A DNA stretch of 63,252 nucleotides, filler included, from Stramenopiles sp. TOSAG23-2 (Eukaryota), in NCBI GenBank assembly GCA_900128395.1. It is 13 parts of 13 records of this genome, joined end to end, with 100 filler letters (N's around TTAATTAATTAA, not from the genome) between each part and the next. Parts side by side here need not be neighbours in the genome. Positions count along the whole stretch, not along the records: positions 23,718 to 29,541 come from LT650585.1; 12 more parts are not named here. The stretch is one strand, 5' to 3'. Each line of letters begins with the position of its first letter. Position 1 is the first letter of the stretch. Under the pieces are notes generated by a model. The model had not been told where the DNA came from, searched no databases, and was given only the letters and a program-made list of their open reading frames with translations. The translations under genes and the position numbers were made by a program. This document shows positions 22,567-41,380 of the stretch, piece by piece.

Positions 22567-23616
22567 TCAAAAATCCTTCTTCTTTACCCTGTTTATAGTT
22601 CGTCTTAGAACATGATAAGGTACAATTTCATTTGATTCCATTTCATTTATAATTTCCTCAACTTTATCGAAATCATCATTCTTTCCGTACAGAGTAATAA
22701 GTGTATTGTACATAACACCATTCGGTTCAATATTATTTGATTTCATTTCACTTAAACATTCATCAACTTTATTGAAATCGCCATGCTTTCCGTACAGATT
22801 AATAAGTGTGCTGTATGTAAAAATATTAGGTTTAATATTATTTGATTTCATTTCATTTACGTATTCATCAATTTTATCAAAATCGCCATTCTTTCCAAAT
22901 ACAGAAATTAATGTATTGTATATAACACCATTCGGTTCAATATTATTTGATTTCATTTCATTCAAATACTCCTCAACTTTATCAAGGTCATTTTTCTTTC
23001 CATACGCATTAATAAGTGTGCTGTATGTGATAATTTGAAGTGCAATATTATTTATTTTCATTTCATTTAAACATTCATCAACTTTATCAAAATCGCCATT
23101 CCTTCCAAATGCAGAAATTAATATATTGTATGTATAACCATCCGGTTCAATATTATTTGATTTCATTTCATTTACGAATTCATCAACTTTATCTAGGCCA
23201 CCATTCTTTCCACACGCATCAATTAAAGTGTTGTATGTAGTAAGAGTCAGTTTGAGATTATTTGATTTCATTTCTTTATAATATTTTTCAACTTTATTGA
23301 ACTTCTTCCTCTTCACACATGTGATAATAAGCATGTTATAGTGGAAAACTTTTGGCTTGATATTTTTTAATTTCATTTCCTTGAAACATTTTTCAATTTT
23401 TCTCACATTGCCTATCTTTGCGTATGCAATAATCAACGTACTGTATGTAATATTAGTTGGTTCAATATTATTTGATAACATTTCATCTATGTATTTCTTA
23501 ACTGTCTGCATGTCACCATTTTTTCCGTAGGTACTAATCAGTGTGGTATATGTAACAACATCAGGTTTAATATTATTTGATTTCATCTCATCGACATATT
23601 CATCAACTTTAATGTA
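22567..23616 (-). CDS. P-type pentatricopeptide repeat protein (at least 9 repeats), 5' end cut by contig edge
   Basis: Regular 35-aa repeats xxTYNTLIxxYGKNGDFDKVDExxNEMKSNNIEPx. Confidence 0.93.
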   Translation of the reverse strand, partial: YIKVDEYVDEMKSNNIKPDVVTYTTLISTYGKNGDMQTVKKYIDEMLSNNIEPTNITYSTLIIAYAKIGNVRKIEKCFKEMKLKNIKPKVFHYNMLIITCVKRKKFNKVEKYYKEMKSNNLKLTLTTYNTLIDACGKNGGLDKVDEFVNEMKSNNIEPDGYTYNILISAFGRNGDFDKVDECLNEMKINNIALQIITYSTLINAYGKKNDLDKVEEYLNEMKSNNIEPNGVIYNTLISVFGKNGDFDKIDEYVNEMKSNNIKPNIFTYSTLINLYGKHGDFNKVDECLSEMKSNNIEPNGVMYNTLITLYGKNDDFDKVEEIINEMESNEIVPYHVLRRTINRVKKKDF

Positions 23617-23717
23617 TNNNNNNNNNNNNNNNNNNNNNNNNNNNNNNNNNNNNNNNNNNNNTTAATTAATTAANNNNNNNNNNNNNNNNNNNNNNNNNNN
23701 NNNNNNNNNNNNNNNNN

Positions 23718-26700
23718 TATTTGGAAGTTTTTTACCATCAACATCTACAATAAAACATGTTTTATATTCAAATCTGCTTGTACCAGGTGACCGAGTAACA
23801 GATGAATCCCGGGATGGATACAATTTTCTCAACCAAGTACCAACACGCAAAGGTTCATCACCATCTTCAATTAATCCATTTGGTAACAATTTACCATATT
23901 GATATGTTTTAGAATCAACAAACCTTTTGCATATAAATCCAACGTAGCGTTCTGCTCCTAATTTATTGCATATTTCATGATATCCTATTCTAACTGTGCC
24001 AAAGGGTTTTGGAGTATCATCAATCGTTAATATTTTGCTCGAGGAAGATGAGCTAGAAGTATCGCTGCTGTTATTGTTCGTGGTGCCTTCTTCGCTTTCT
24101 TCTTCCTCTTCTTCGCTTTCCTCTTCTTCGCCTTCTTCTTCTCTTCGATCACTTTCTTCACCAGCTTTTAATTTTTTGCCTCCCGTAGAAGATGTGCTTG
24201 AGCTGTTGTTACTGTTCATTGCGCCTTCTTCTTCCCCTTCATCTTCGTCACTTTCTTCCTCTTCCTCCTCGTCGCTTTCTTCCGCTTCTTTACTTTCTTC
24301 ATTAGATGTGACTTTTTTACCTCTGCGGAATGCCCACAGATCCAATTTATTTGGAAGTTTTTTACCATCAACATCTACAATAAAACATGTTTTATATTCA
24401 AAAGTACCAGATGATTCCCGGGATCGCTGATACAATTTTCTCAACCAAGAACCAACACGCAAAGGTTCATCACCATCTTCAATTAATCCATTTGGTAACA
24501 ATTTACCATATTGATATGTTTTAGAATCAACAAACCTTTTGCATATAAATCCAACGTAGCGTTCTGCTCCTAATTTATTGCATATTTCATGATATCCGAT
24601 TCTAACTGTGCCAAAGGATTTACCGGGAGTATCATCAATCGTTAATATTTTGCTCGTGGAAGATGTGCTAGAAGTATCGCTGCTGTTATTGTTCGTGGTG
24701 CCTTCTTCGCTTTCTTCTTCATCTTCTTCTTCGCTTTCTTCTTCCTCTTCTTCGCTTTCCTCTTCTTCCTCTTCTTCTTCTCTTCGATCACTTTCTTCAC
24801 CAGCTCTTAACTTTTTGCCTCTCCTAAATGCATAAAAATCCAATTTATTTGGAAGTTTTCTACCATCAACGTCCACAATAAAACAATTTTTATAGTTGAA
24901 ACTACTGTGTGCTTTCCGAAAGCTTTTCATTAGCCAGACGCCAACAGAAAGGGGCTTGTCATCATTTTCAATTAACCCACTTTGTAAAAGTTTGCCATAT
25001 TTGAACACATTCGAAAAACGGCTTTGTCTGCACTCGAAACCTATAAAGTGTTTAGCTCCTAATTTACTACATATTTCATCATAACCAAATTTTGCGCGAC
25101 CAAGACTTGATAAGTGAACATCATCAACACTTAATATTTTATTTGTAGACGATGTGTTTAAAGTATTATTGCTGTTACTCTTTTTTGCCCCTTCCTGTCC
25201 CTCGTCTTCGCTTTCTTCCTCTTTGTCACTTTCTCCATTCGATGTTATTTTTTTACCTCTTCTAAATGCATATAGATCTAATTTATTTGGTAGCTTCTTA
25301 CCGTCAACATCTACGATGAAACACCGTTTATAGTAAGAACCTCCGCTAAAACTCGATGAACTCGGTGGATACTTTTTCCTCATCCAATTCGCCATAGTTA
25401 ATGGTTTTTCAACGTCTTCAACGAATCCATTTGGCAATAGTTTACCATATTGATATACTGTCGAATGTACATCGCTCTTGTACGTGAATCCAACATAGCG
25501 TTTTGCTCCTAATTTATTACATATTAAATCCATACCAAAAATTTGTGCACGCTTACTTAGGTCAAGCGATTCTATGGTTACTTCATCAATAGTTAACATT
25601 TTGCCGGTAGAAGATGTGCTTGAAGTATTATTGCTGTTGCTATTTGTTGTATCTTCCTGCTCATCTCCTTGCTCTTCGCCACTTTCCCCGTTTTCTTCAC
25701 TTTCTTCCTCTCCATCACTTTCTTCACCAACTGTTAACTCTTTACCTCTCCTGAATGCAAAAAACTCCAATTTGTTTGGTAGTTTTTTACCATCAACGTC
25801 TACAATATAACAACATCTATAGTTAAATCTCGTGGGAGGGCGGTTAGGAAACGTCTCTTTAAGCCAAGTACCAACAGGAATAGCCCCGTCATCACTTTCC
25901 ATTAATCCAATATGCAAAAGTTTACCATAATAATATGATTCAGAATCTAAAGATCTCTTCCCCATTAATCCAATATAACGTTTCGCTCCTAATTTATCAC
26001 ATACTTCATCATAACCTAATTTCACAGCACCAAGATCACCGACCGAAAAATCACGAACAGTTAACATTTTCTTTGTAGAAGTAGAAGAAGAACTTATTGG
26101 CGCATTACTGCCATTATTATTGTCATCAGTTGCTTCTCCTACTTCTCCTCCCTCCACTTCTTTCTCCTGTTCTTGCTCTTTTTCTCCCTCTTCCACTTCT
26201 TTCTCCTGTTCTTGCTCTTTTTCTCCCTCCTCCACTTCTTCAACATTTTTATTAAATGTTACGTCTACACCTTTTCTAAATGCATATAAATCTAATTTAT
26301 TTGCAAGTTTTTTACCATCGACATCTACAATAAAACATTTTTTATAGTCGAACTTTTTCATGGTATGCCCCCCTACAGGGTAATTTTCCTTAATCCATGT
26401 AGCAACAGCCAGTGGCGACCCATTTTTATTTTCAATCATACCATCAGGTAAAATTTTGCCATAAATTCCCGGTTGTCTTGAAAACACACCATAATGATAG
26501 TACTCAAAACCAACATAATTTTTTGCTTTTAATTTATCACATATTGCTTCCATACCAAGTTTATTAGGCAAATAACTAAATGCCTCAAGTCGCAAATCAT
26601 TTATATTTTGTATTTTTCTTTTGGGGCTAGGACTTGAAGTATTATTAATATTATTGATCTCCTCTTCTCCTTCTTCCTCCTCCTCGTCTTCGTCTTCTTG

Positions 26701-28334
26701 CATATATGTTTCATCATTTACGGGCGTTTTGGTTCTTTTAAATCTCAACACAAACGGTCGTTTTCTTAAATTCATATGAACAACTTCATCATAGGAAAGC
26801 CTTTTAAATTTACCGTTTGAGCCAACAACTCCCATAAGGTAATCACCAAGTCCAACAGTACCCTCTTCATCAATAAATGAACCAGGTTTAATAGCGGTAA
26901 CTTCCATTCCTTCAAAACTGTCACCATCAAAAATAGACATCCCAAGTTTGAATTTTTGTCCACCACCACTAGGCACTACAACATCGTAACCTTGATCATC
27001 GTCCACAAAATTTTCTGTACGTTTACGCATTGACAAAACAATTGGCCGCTTCTTGGTTCTTAGCAACTTTTTACACACCTCAAGTTTTTTATCTATAAAA
27101 GAAACAACTTTGTTATTATATGTCAAATGTATTTCCAATTCTAAAATCATATCGCCTATTTTTAAATGACCATTTATATCTGCAAACCCATTTGGTATTA
27201 TTTCATGGATTCTAATATACGATTTATTATTTTTAATTATACGTTCAATTTCTATACCAAGGCCACCAACACCAACATCACACACATCAGTTGAATTTAC
27301 TGTTACAAAATAAAATTCGTTATAGGTTAGTTCATCTACTTCATTTTCAATAAATTTTCGTTGAGAAGATGAAAAGCGCGTATTGAATTGATCTTCAAGA
27401 AATTTCAATACAGGAACAGTATTTCTATCATCCGCACCATCGTGTTTGTCTAGATATGACACAATCGCTTTTTGCAAAATATCATCAGTAATAGCATCAT
27501 CTTTATCATCATCCTCGTTATCATCGTCGACAACTAATGTTTCATCTGGAGTTTCTTGGCTTATATTTTCTTCTACTTCTGTTTGATCGTTTGTATTAGC
27601 ATCGCGATGATTCGTTTGATTATTATTAATATTGCTACTGCTGCTGCTATTAATAGTTGTAGTGGTGGTGGTGGTGGTTGTAGTTGTTGTTGCTGTCGAA
27701 ATTGCATTATTACCACCGCTCCCATCAATATTATCATCATTGTTATCATTGCTAAATACATTTTCTACTTCTGCGAGGTGTTCTTTCCCTAATGTATTAT
27801 TGTTGTTGTTGTTGTTGTTGTTGTTGTTATCATCATCCGTGGTAGGAATTGTTGCAGGATCATTTATTGCATTATTTATATTGTTGACATCATTTGTTGA
27901 TTCTATAGATATATTTGATTGATTATCAATATTTTTATCTTTGTCGGAATTAGAAATATGGTTTCCATCTGCTTGATGATTCTCGTTATTATCATCATCA
28001 TTCTCCTCCTCGTCTTCCTCGTCGTCATCTTCAAATATTTGTGATTGTTGTGTAGCTGCAAACATCACACGTTTTCGGACAGGATTTTCTCCTCTTTCGA
28101 TCAAATTTGTTTGTCTATTTCTTCCAGTAGATTTTTTTCTTTTAGAATTTGAAGAAAGAATACGATATGAATTTTCATTATCACTAATTTGATCTTGTTC
28201 TTCATCTGTCATTGTATTTTCTAATGGCGTAGTAGCATTAATTTCTGGAATTGCATTACCATCATCAATGACATCACTAAAATCACCATCATCCTCTTCC
28301 TCGTCTTCATCTTCAAATTGTTGACTATTGCTAC

Positions 28335-28373
<39 letters not shown>

Positions 28374-29283
28374 CGATTATCGGATCATCATTGCTACTAT
28401 TACTAATACTACTACTATTGACTGTAGTATTTATATTATTACCACTACTTTGTGTATCAATATCATTGTAATCTATGACGTTGTTTAAATTGTTATTATT
28501 GTTACTTGTTGTGCCTCCATTTTTATTATTATCATTATTATCATCATCGATAATTTCAATATGATATGACGTAGAATCAGCTTGTTGAAGCAAATAAATA
28601 TTTCTTATGTAATAATACATACCAGTATCAAGTAAAGTTTTGATTAATTGAATATGTCGCAAAGGTTGTGGATTACCAAATAAAGTATTACCCATTTCGT
28701 TATAAATAACAGCACTATCGATTTGAATATAAAAAGGAGAATCATATACATTTATTAATATATGTGGTGCTGCATTGTTATACGTAGCTTCAATATATTT
28801 TATTTGAGGCTCGGTCCACATTAATAATTTGTATGCACAAAGTTGCAATGTTTTATTGTTTAGTCGTTGTTTGAATTTTGCGAAGAAATCATTTTCCCTT
28901 GTATTATTATTATTATTATCATTTGCATCTACTCCAAATAATTCTTTACGACATTTTGACGTAATACAAAAACATATTTTAAAATGTGTATCATTTAAAT
29001 GTCCAAAACAAAGATCTTGAGCAATGAAAAAATTTGGACATATTTGTGCTTGAAATTTATTTGTTTGCAATGTATACGGTGGATTTGGAATTGTTTGACG
29101 CGAAGTCGATGACGATGACGAGGAAGAGGAATCGTTGCTGTTGTTGTTGTTGTTGGTATTATTAAGATTATTTTGTTCTTGTCCTGTATTACCTTGGTTT
29201 AAATGTGCAAAAGGTAATAATGCATGTTCTACTAATGCTTTTATTTTACTATTTTTTTTTGTTTTTGGGAATATACCCGACAT
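23718..29283 (-). CDS. Large multidomain protein: DEK-C-like helix bundle, two PDZ domains, at least 6 tandem copies of an unnamed ~110-aa domain with acidic linkers; 3' end cut by contig edge
   Basis: Uninterrupted ORF of over 1850 codons. DEK-C-like ITDDILQKAIVSYL...LEDQFNTRFSSSQRKFIENEVDEL. PDZ motifs GGLGIEI...IHEIIPNGFADINGHLKIGDMIL and KLGMSI...VTAIKPGSFIDEEGTVGLGDYL. Repeat core YGKLLPNGLIE...W...YKxCFIVDVDGKKLPNKLDxYAFRRG. Confidence 0.88.
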
Positions 29284-29641
29284 GTTTAAATTGAATAATA
29301 TTTCCTCTTTTTATTCTTTTCTTTTCAGTTGGTTTGTTTGAATAATGAAACTGTTTGGATGTATAAGTTAAAGAAAATAATGTTTCTTTTCTGTTTTCAT
29401 TTATTTTTTTAATAATCGATAATCGATCGATAATATTTTAATTAATTATTTAATTATTATTAGTCGTCATTAAAGCCCGTTCATAACCATAGTCCTGTGT
29501 GTTAAATGTGTGTTAAATTTAGTGCATCCTACGCAAAACTTNNNNNNNNNNNNNNNNNNNNNNNNNNNNNNNNNNNNNNNNNNNNTTAATTAATTAANNN
29601 NNNNNNNNNNNNNNNNNNNNNNNNNNNNNNNNNNNNNNNNN

Positions 29642-38475: not shown

Positions 38476-41380
38476 TATTCAATGCTTGCCCATCACCACT
38501 AGTATGCGGTGGGCGTGTGATAGTGAACGGGTCATCATCACCAATCACCATATTTTCACTGTCGTCTAATTTCACTCGTACTTTAAATTCCCCGGAACCT
38601 TTTCGCTTTGTATACAAGTGTAAGCTCCCACTGTACATATCACTATCATCCGCGCGGTCCTCAATATGTATCTTGGAAAAAATGGAGGCAACCTTTACTC
38701 TGTTGTCAGAGCTATATCCTGCAAAAGCTAGGGTACCGACAGTATCATTGTGTAAATTTGCTACAGGTATTTCTGACGGATTAGTGCCATTTCTATCACG
38801 TGATAAGACAATCGTAGCACCACTGCTATCTTCACTATCCGAGGAAGATCGAACGAAAATACTTTCATCTATGTTAGTTTCAATAACAAGTGGCGATGCG
38901 GGTTGATAATACAAGTTGTTTGAAGTCTGTCCCAACTGTACCAATCGCATCATTTGTAACGCGGTTGTTCCTGTATTTAAGCCTTCGACTGTTACAAGGC
39001 TCGACCTAGATTGCGACATGTAGTTTGCAGAACTTGACTGTACATTTAAAGCTGTTCCCCCTTCAAGATTGTTTGCTTGTATGTCAACAATTTTGCCACT
39101 TGTTTGCGCGTTTGCGTCTATTTTTACTAAAGACCCATCATTATCGAGGCTGGTCCCCACGGAGGAGACTTGAAACGCTGTTCCACTCGTCAACGAATCT
39201 GCAGATATTTTTGCAACCACTCCAGACTGTATATTATTTGCTTCAAGCAAAATTGGATTCACTGCATATTTTGAAGTAGTAGAGACATGTAATAATTTTC
39301 CCGTTGTCAAAGTATCCCACTCAGTTCTATAAGCTCCGATCCATTTCCATGAATTGGTATTTGCAACTATTTCATAACCGAAGAAAGCATCCGTGAAAAC
39401 ATGATCAGACGATGTGCGTATTTGATAGGTTACGTTATTTGCCTTTGAAAATAAATTTGCTTCAACATTACCAATTTTTAACGTTGTTACGTAACCACTT
39501 TGAACACTTATATTATTTTTAATTTGAAAGGTAATGTTGTAAGCAGACTGATCTAATATGGTTAAATTAAAACGCAATTGTTCTGCCTTCACATCATTGG
39601 CGATAGTTACAAACCCTTCCGATTCGATAATGTTATCAAAGTGCGCAACGTTACTTCTAATTGTTATTTGCCCTGACGTTGGGATCGTGTGCGTAGGTGT
39701 AAATTCAAAAACTAAGCTTCCATGATTTTTACCCAATACATAGGAATCTGTTAAATATATTTCTTGAAAAACTACGCTATGTGGATTTAATATTTTGTAA
39801 CCATCCTGATTTTCTAGCTTTGTCGTATCTTTACTAGTTTTTATGTTAAAATTCACCTCCAAAACATTCGATGGGTTCATTTGCAAACCACCAGAGCATC
39901 TAAATTCAACCAGTTCACCGGCTACTAATTTATGTTCCAAAGTTATTTCTATTGTACGTTTATCCACAACTTCAGTCTTTGAATTAAAAGATAACTCTTG
40001 AAGCCATCCATCACAAATAGTTAGTATAGGTTCAACGACAAATAAATCAGATGTTGCTGTCAATATCACCAGATCATTGATTTCTAATGTTGTTTGTGGT
40101 AGAAAGGAAAAAATGAAATCTCCGCCATTTCTTCCCCCAATGTAACTCCCCTTCCGTTCGGCGCCGATCCATTGAACGCTTTGAGTATTAACAATTTCAT
40201 ATCCAACTTGGTCTATTAACTTTGTTGTATCTGACGATGTCGATATGTTAAACGTCACCACTGCTGCAGAAGATGAAGAAAAAGATGATGGGCAATGAAT
40301 CTGCGCAAGTTGTCCCCAGGGAAGAGATTCTCTTAAATGAATTTTCAACCACGTTGTTCCTATGTAAGTTTCAACTTCGATTTCCAGACCATTGCTATAT
40401 AAAGAACATTCGTTCTCAACGTCGCTGATGTTAAAAATATCAATGCTGCCATTAACTAGAATNNNNNNNNNNNNNNNNNNNNNNNNNNNNNNNNNNNNNN
40501 NNNNNNNNNNNNNNNNNNNAACTAGAATAAAACCATTTGCAATGACCCTGGTACTTGGAATAAATTCAATTACCAATGGGCCCAACGCATTGTTCACCAC
40601 GTACGACTGTAATCTAGATGCTTTTACCCACTTCACAATTTTCTTATTTGCAGGACTTATCTCGTACCCAATTAAATTTGTTATTAGATTGCTGCGAGTG
40701 CTATTTATAGCAAAGGAAATGATTTCGTTTGCATAATCATCCGTGACTAAATTCGATGAGCATTCTAAAAATACTCGATGGCCAGGTGCTATCTCAATGT
40801 CAAATTTTGCAACCAATGCAACATCATACTGTTCATGGGTCGTTGCTGAGATATATGTGGTAGGATTTACCATAATTTCATTTATCTTACCAGAGCATTC
40901 AATTGGTCCAATTTGTTTGAAAACTGCCGTCGCATTCGAAGGGTAAATATACAACGATTCATCAAGTAGAATCCTACTTTGAGGTATAAACTCAAAACGT
41001 AAAAAGCCATTTCCAGGGTCATTGACGACAGAGATGCCACTGCCAACCGTTAAATTGGGAAGATGAATGTCAAGTACATTGCCAGTTGATAACGCGCCTG
41101 CAGAAAAATCTAAGAGGGTCCCAGCCGTGACTGGTGACGTTGGAACACCACCATCAATCACTAAACCATTTTTATGTAGTTCAATTATAGTAGTGTCATT
41201 TGAAGTGGAAAAATCCAACAAACCGCCGGTAAAAGTTACGTTGCCAGTTGCTGTAACATCTTTAAATTTAGAAGAAGAATTGCCGGATAACATGTAATCG
41301 CCATGTCGGTTCTTTCTTGTACAAATCCATTCTTTATCAGCATCTACACTGGTACAGGTAACTATAGGAGTCCTTCGACC
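38414..41380 (-). CDS. Internal fragment of a giant beta-rich protein with about 140-aa beta-sandwich-like repeats and phage-tail-fibre-like motifs
   Basis: Open from the contig edge (GRRTPIVTCTSVDADKEWIC...). Four FxFxPxT...FxIxTSxD...GYEI repeats, then beta-helix-like SLTSGTAFQV repeats, then IVLSRDRNGT...DTVGTLAFAGY...VASI...GSLHLYT. Confidence 0.75.
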   Translation of the reverse strand, partial: GRRTPIVTCTSVDADKEWICTRKNRHGDYMLSGNSSSKFKDVTATGNVTFTGGLLDFSTSNDTTIIELHKNGLVIDGGVPTSPVTAGTLLDFSAGALSTGNVLDIHLPNLTVGSGISVVNDPGNGFLRFEFIPQSRILLDESLYIYPSNATAVFKQIGPIECSGKINEIMVNPTTYISATTHEQYDVALVAKFDIEIAPGHRVFLECSSNLVTDDYANEIISFAINSTRSNLITNLIGYEISPANKKIVKWVKASRLQSYVVNNALGPLVIEFIPSTRVIANGFILVXXXXXXXXXXXXXXXXXXXILVNGSIDIFNISDVENECSLYSNGLEIEVETYIGTTWLKIHLRESLPWGQLAQIHCPSSFSSSSAAVVTFNISTSSDTTKLIDQVGYEIVNTQSVQWIGAERKGSYIGGRNGGDFIFSFLPQTTLEINDLVILTATSDLFVVEPILTICDGWLQELSFNSKTEVVDKRTIEITLEHKLVAGELVEFRCSGGLQMNPSNVLEVNFNIKTSKDTTKLENQDGYKILNPHSVVFQEIYLTDSYVLGKNHGSLVFEFTPTHTIPTSGQITIRSNVAHFDNIIESEGFVTIANDVKAEQLRFNLTILDQSAYNITFQIKNNISVQSGYVTTLKIGNVEANLFSKANNVTYQIRTSSDHVFTDAFFGYEIVANTNSWKWIGAYRTEWDTLTTGKLLHVSTTSKYAVNPILLEANNIQSGVVAKISADSLTSGTAFQVSSVGTSLDNDGSLVKIDANAQTSGKIVDIQANNLEGGTALNVQSSSANYMSQSRSSLVTVEGLNTGTTALQMMRLVQLGQTSNNLYYQPASPLVIETNIDESIFVRSSSDSEDSSGATIVLSRDRNGTNPSEIPVANLHNDTVGTLAFAGYSSDNRVKVASIFSKIHIEDRADDSDMYSGSLHLYTKRKGSGEFKVRVKLDDSENMVIGDDDPFTITRPPHTSGDGQALNIKGQEAANGNWWTLQHVLSH

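Follow-up and report, generated by a model that had tools for sequence, protein, structure and literature searches.

We examined a stretch of 63,252 nucleotides (nt) from the assembly GCA_900128395.1 of Stramenopiles sp. TOSAG23-2 (hereafter the window, filler between its 13 parts included), and found that a single minus-strand open reading frame (ORF) within it carries six copies of a domain of 106-118 amino acids (aa), anchored on the invariant motif (F/Y)IVDVDG(K/R)KL. In the order of translation, these copies and the acidic linkers between them occupy the following positions:

26263..26616, minus strand: repeat 1, aa 890-1007, net charge +6
26071..26262, minus strand: acidic linker 1, 64 aa, net charge -15
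25738..26070, minus strand: repeat 2, aa 1072-1182, net charge +4
25603..25737, minus strand: acidic linker 2, 45 aa, net charge -15
25249..25602, minus strand: repeat 3, aa 1228-1345, net charge +9
25141..25248, minus strand: acidic linker 3, 36 aa, net charge -6
24811..25140, minus strand: repeat 4, aa 1382-1491, net charge +10, the copy modeled by AlphaFold2 (ma63843951688)
24652..24810, minus strand: acidic linker 4, 53 aa, net charge -24
24313..24651, minus strand: repeat 5, aa 1545-1657, net charge +8
24037..24312, minus strand: acidic linker 5, 92 aa, net charge -32, including a second linker-4-type segment
23719..24036, minus strand: repeat 6, aa 1750-1855, cut by the contig end after DGKKLPN

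The repeat array is genuine and lies well past chance expectation. Our six-copy alignment (A1) contains 25 invariant columns, and it gives essentially the same consensus as an initial annotation of this DNA, whose copy boundaries differ from ours by at most about 5 nt each. At the protein level, copies 1-4 share 46-61% identity with copy 5, and copy 6 shares 95%. Indels fall mostly into the two loops that the annotation had described as variable, one following YVGF and one following WLxKxY, with an insert proximal to the N terminus as an additional site of length variation. Net charge alternates along the array, from +4 to +10 in the repeats to -6 to -32 in the linkers, which are 36-92 aa long, acidic, and rich in Ser, Thr, and Asn. 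The near-identity reported for copies 5 and 6 was borne out at the DNA level, where they are 98% identical over 193 nt (direct repeat family D2). Linker 5, at twice the length of the other linkers, repeats the linker-4 segment KLxAGEESDRREEE...TTNNNSSDTSS (direct repeat D3, 77% over 166 nt), and because this segment recurs there, a block consisting of linker 4 and copy 5 appears to have been duplicated, giving rise to copy 6. Such a block duplication fits recent unequal recombination, and it probably explains the breaks of assemblies at this position.

The contig bearing the array covers positions 23718-29541, and the edge at 23718 is a contig joint rather than the end of the gene. Outside the array, we identified the following features of the gene, of its continuation on a metagenome contig (L001), and of the joint:

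23719..29283, minus strand: ORF P0001, 1855 aa, uninterrupted, its 3' end lost at the contig joint
28504..29283, minus strand: N-terminal 260 aa, globular-looking, without a family or PDB sequence match
27316..27492, minus strand: DEK_C-like stretch, a weak lead, aa 598-656 (PF08766, E 0.028, 14.8 bits, below the cut-off of 24.8)
27139..27273, minus strand: PDZ domain, aa 671-715 (Pfam PF00595, E 4.9e-08, 33.7 bits versus a cut-off of 23.2)
23618..23717, no strand: artificial contig joint, N44-TTAATTAATTAA-N44, past which the DNA is no true neighbor
L001:1008-1187 and L001:2187-2465 region, plus strand: Tudor domain in the C-terminal tail (LBR_tudor, E 1.1e-05, 25.5 bits versus a cut-off of 22)
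L001:1008-1187 and L001:2187-2465 region, plus strand: weak C-terminal PDZ domain in the tail (E 0.026)

Beyond the contig end, two contigs, one from a DNA run and one from an RNA library, show copy 6 extending into sequence that resembles copy 5 at its C-terminal end, along with the linker of that copy (joint 24348>23719), and a protein fragment, P0007, shows the same continuation. On L001, a seventh copy is followed by about 750 aa and then a stop codon, in keeping with the earlier count of at least six copies. Read across these contigs, the full gene carries seven copies and encodes a product of roughly 2,700 aa, whose tail displays, by eye in the L001 translation, basic runs resembling nuclear localization signals. 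The N-terminal 260 aa matched nothing in Pfam at E<=10 and nothing among PDB sequences at E<=1. Two short helical stretches, at 27316-27492 (minus strand) and L001:1494-1706 (plus strand), each upstream of a PDZ-like region, recall the C-terminal DNA-binding domain of DEK; the second stretch had no DEK_C match in Pfam. The window contains 12 N44-TTAATTAATTAA-N44 linkers (5832-61967) between contigs of ~5.8 kb or shorter, and since the parts are unrelated across these joints, we did not use the other genes of the window as a gene neighborhood. One plain gap of 57 N lies at 40463-40519.

The family to which the repeat belongs is, judged from sequence searches, tiny. When the six-copy profile was run exhaustively with HMMER against 1.84 billion representatives, 10 proteins emerged at E<=0.001, namely eight fragments of the array gene, one distinct fragment of 99 aa (P0009), and one protein (P0014) that was rejected as a relative, being a repeated-peptide artefact. 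Word-indexed searches returned three proteins each time, two of them fragments of the array gene and the third P0003, a metagenome protein of 1761 aa with a SET domain (E 6.9e-14), an Agenet domain (E 5.9e-06), weak PHD and Tudor_2 domains, and two C-terminal copies of the repeat domain, the second far more divergent. P0003, whose cluster contains four full-length versions of 1761-1771 aa, is the sole paralogous architecture that we found for the domain, so that the family would comprise the array gene, P0003, and the short fragment P0009. None of 33 pattern matches in bacterial and archaeal genome contigs and none of 70 in viral contigs was confirmed as a relative, and cluster look-ups returned no names.

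The initial annotation had assigned the domain to no named family, and had suggested a RAMA- or SAND-like reader of DNA or modified bases. RAMA (PF18755) is the DNA-binding C-terminal domain of CcrM (PDB 6PBD) and the N-terminal domain of MPND (PDB 7YDT, 7YDW), to our knowledge its only two solved representatives, and remains a poorly understood module; SAND is a small alpha/beta nuclear DNA-binding domain. The absence of a named family was upheld: searches with the copies gave no credible family match in Pfam or PDB, with zero PDB matches at E<=10 in a profile search of the repeat. In Pfam, at E<=10, neither RAMA nor SAND was found in the six window copies or in three further proteins (P0009, the seventh copy on L001, and P0003). 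A match to DUF4225 in two of the six copies (E 0.065-0.18) was taken as noise. PHROGs yielded nothing credible, only scattered matches of single members at E 0.0067-0.39, and none of nine family members was matched in NCBIfam.

An AlphaFold2 model built from six sequences was poor, with a predicted local distance difference test score (pLDDT) of 50, and a model of repeat 4 built from nine sequences reached a pLDDT of 61.6 and a predicted template modeling score (pTM) of 0.59. In the latter, DSSP assigned helices at 20-27, 66-73, and 102-106, strands at 33-38, 46-51, and 86-90, bridges at 57 and 64, and a two-residue strand, so that the predicted secondary structure, at pLDDT 61.6, consists of three helices, a pair of long strands, and several shorter elements, in agreement with that of RAMA. 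We scanned the repeat-4 model, in an unbiased manner, against 48,161 representative chains, and obtained the following ranks and scores:

rank 1: 6pbd_B, 5.3, RAMA (CcrM)
rank 2: 7ydt_A, 4.7, RAMA (MPND)
rank 3: 7bj3_A, 3.9, unrelated
rank 4: 1oqj_B, 3.9, SAND
rank 8: 1ufn, 3.2, SAND

RAMA was hence the best fold match of the repeat. In Foldseek searches with the same model, the two RAMA entries led TMq among the matches listed (0.39 versus <=0.28), yet nothing reached E<=0.001. A Foldseek search of the viral BFVD library brought no match at that threshold either, and the names it returned were uninformative. ESM Atlas features of repeat 5 placed RAMA-bearing clusters in the top three positions at scores of 0.81-0.82, under the tool's bar, and the cluster closest to P0009, as modeled in the ESM Atlas, carried RAMA in 18% of its members and the one in row 7 in 77%, all under the bar as well. 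Because these individually weak lines, which differ in method and in the family member used, converge on one family among thousands, we lean, somewhat beyond an even chance, towards a RAMA-like fold for the repeat. Of the earlier RAMA/SAND-like suggestion, then, the resemblance to RAMA in fold received some support from the structural scan and, as a lead, from the ESM features, whereas no profile or hidden Markov model (HMM) link emerged and a tryptophan motif typical of RAMA is missing.

Several further features of the array fit the RAMA comparison. Like RAMA, the domain is about 100 aa in size. In a study of MPND, its RAMA domain is described as comprising three helices, a pair of long antiparallel strands, and four short ones, and the two acidic regions on its flanks as hindering its binding to DNA and favoring that to histones and nucleosomes (PMC9963953); the basic domains of the array are similarly flanked by acidic regions. 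Eukaryotic RAMA partners named by Iyer et al. 2016 include SET, PHD, Tudor, Chromo, and ankyrin (PMC4738411), and the architecture of P0003, together with the Tudor domain in the tail of the array gene, fits this list. We therefore consider the repeat most likely to be a very divergent relative of RAMA, or at least a fold-mate as far as the model can tell: the domain falls outside Pfam RAMA as defined, probably works like RAMA, and may form a very distant branch of it. On this basis, we read the array gene, with a probability of roughly one half, as encoding a divergent RAMA-like protein that binds DNA or nucleosomes in a multivalent manner, and its product of roughly 2,700 aa as probably a chromatin-associated, nuclear protein.

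In the central part of this protein, seven basic alpha/beta modules of ~110 aa alternate with strongly acidic linkers. By analogy with MPND, each module might contact the backbone of double-stranded DNA without sequence specificity, and the acidic linkers could weaken this contact and associate with the basic surfaces of histones. With seven such weak modules in series, the hold on DNA or nucleosome arrays would be avid and multivalent, and the Tudor and PDZ domains could recruit partners. HMG-box proteins such as UBF and HMGB1 likewise join basic modules that bind DNA to acidic tails or linkers. The array resembles these proteins and MPND in combining basic modules with acidic stretches that possibly compete with DNA and bind histones, but differs from them in the fold and family of its modules as well as in their number and regularity, with seven modules in the array gene and linkers of 36-92 aa. 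RAMA appears as a single domain in the cited parts of the literature, unlike the seven tandem copies here; no tandem array of RAMA-type modules was met there, in searches not aimed at tandem arrays.

A number of results weigh against a RAMA-like reading. Searched with PF18755 (cut-off 35.2 bits), the six copies and the three further proteins gave no match at E<=10, nor did the whole protein P0001 at E<=1, and the domain is accordingly not a member of the Pfam RAMA family by that profile; the model itself works, since it detects RAMA in bacteria, in 55 of 201 genomes sampled from one phylum and in 12 of 201 from another. For a direct comparison of alignments, 38 true RAMA domains were sampled via PF18755, with a locus from an unpublished genome excluded. 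In hhalign, an alignment of 10 sequences of the array domain scored a probability of 0.6% (P 0.097) against these 38 domains and 0.8% against a more diverse subset of 14. RAMA HMMs run against the copies with hmmsearch --max gave -3.7 to +2.3 bits, lower than the maximum among 300 shuffles, which was 2.7 bits with one HMM and 7.2 bits with the other, although several copies scored above the 95th percentile of the shuffles. The NGW-type tryptophan motif, [NAPD]GW.[FYV]W in 38 ORF segments of RAMA loci, is absent, the GW dipeptide occurring in none of 10 copies, although substitutes may exist at equivalent positions. The domain shows no detectable sequence or profile similarity to RAMA, and it has an invariant set of its own: C24, K26, L27, A29, G34, G49, K50, L52, G55, W69, C86, V89, D92, and G93 in repeat-4 numbering. 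On the structural side, confidence in the repeat-4 model is middling, RAMA appeared only at ranks 9 and 12 when the poorer model was used, Foldseek returned nothing at E<=0.001, and every ESM score lay below the tool's own bar. Finally, PDZ domains more typically belong to scaffolds in the cytoplasm.

A different explanation would make the repeat a globular domain restricted to its lineage and without any relation to RAMA, serving as a protein-protein module in a PDZ scaffold and built on a common small alpha/beta arrangement such as a beta-grasp, PB1, or ubiquitin-like fold. We regard this as rather unlikely: RAMA took the top two of 48,161 positions with the better model and was also named by two ESM-based looks, the domain keeps company with SET, PHD, Agenet, and Tudor modules, and no PB1 or ubiquitin-like family was found in Pfam at E<=10 across the six copies and three further proteins. 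A search for orthologues of aa 575-885, which include the DEK_C-like stretch and the PDZ domain, was aimed at relatives in which a canonical RAMA domain replaces the repeats, and returned a generic vertebrate PDZ protein as its sole match. A SAND-type instead of a RAMA-type DNA-binding domain appears very improbable. SAND domains (GMEB1, PDB 1OQJ; 1UFN) share with the repeat the character of a small alpha/beta domain and appeared as weak matches in the structural scan (ranks 4 and 8), and SAND (PF01342) had no Pfam match at E<=10 in the six copies, P0009, the seventh copy, or P0003. The SAND motif, KDWK, was not seen by eye in any of 10 copies. Our literature search found 11 papers naming 'RAMA domain' and no paper naming both this and 'SAND domain'.

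Closer to the RAMA-like interpretation, the array might act as a specific reader of modified bases, for example N6-methyladenine (6mA), with the two variable loops lending each copy a specificity of its own. The modeled resemblance to RAMA and the differences in loop length and sequence among copies would agree with this, as would earlier pull-downs in which MPND RAMA was selective for 6mA DNA (PMC6591016). However, MYSM1 RAMA was not selective in the same study, and according to a later one, MPND RAMA touches only the DNA backbone, without base contacts, and its binding was unaffected by 6mA (PMC9963953). Furthermore, the MPND contacts Ser113, Ser115, and Trp135 have no obvious counterparts in the sequence of the array domain. 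We hence consider specific base reading improbable, and the variable loops may merely be unconstrained surface loops. A bolder version, to which we give equally little credence, would see a cryptic, highly divergent RAMA branch expanded by a marine protist into seven modules. Differing in a pair of loops close to the face that contacts DNA, these modules would recognize distinct DNA modifications or shapes and be coupled to Tudor and PDZ recruitment, with a sister version linked to a SET histone methyltransferase. If true, the SET-attached sister would connect DNA marks with histone methylation.

The 6mA-sensing role of RAMA is disputed, and a branch invisible to Pfam would broaden the known range of the fold; if the link to RAMA is true, RAMA-type domains would be under-counted in protists. 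The regular layout of basic modules and acidic linkers would offer a natural test system for the model of autoinhibition and histone binding put forward for MPND. Should the RAMA link be wrong, the array still represents an undescribed domain family, in a gene recovered from RNA libraries as well as from marine samples of 14 studies.

The array stretch was present in marine and seawater metagenomes in 20 rows from these 14 studies, six of the rows being RNA libraries, and the host, a marine microbial eukaryote, is AT-rich. A dictyostelid-like affinity, suggested by the low GC and by poly-N and poly-T runs, was rejected in view of this marine occurrence. RNA-library contigs with 0-4 differing letters covered the array, namely contigs of 717 and 650 nt from run X15 and short ones from the polyA library X19, two RNA libraries from two studies. 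This coverage is consistent with transcription, and DNA carry-over in those libraries may also account for it. Introns suggested by joints of 4-5 kb were rejected as cross-matches, with sides of just 21-24 letters located in acidic-codon repeats. In all four runs, depth spiked to 200-2600 at 24099-24288, 27329-27708, and 28279-28468, in repeats of acidic or homopolymer codons; as contigs of other organisms match such low-complexity stretches, depth at these spikes is uninformative on the gene. On another contig of the window, positions 22567-23586 (minus strand) encode an ORF of 339 aa made of repeats of ~35 aa that look, by eye, like pentatricopeptide repeats (PPR).
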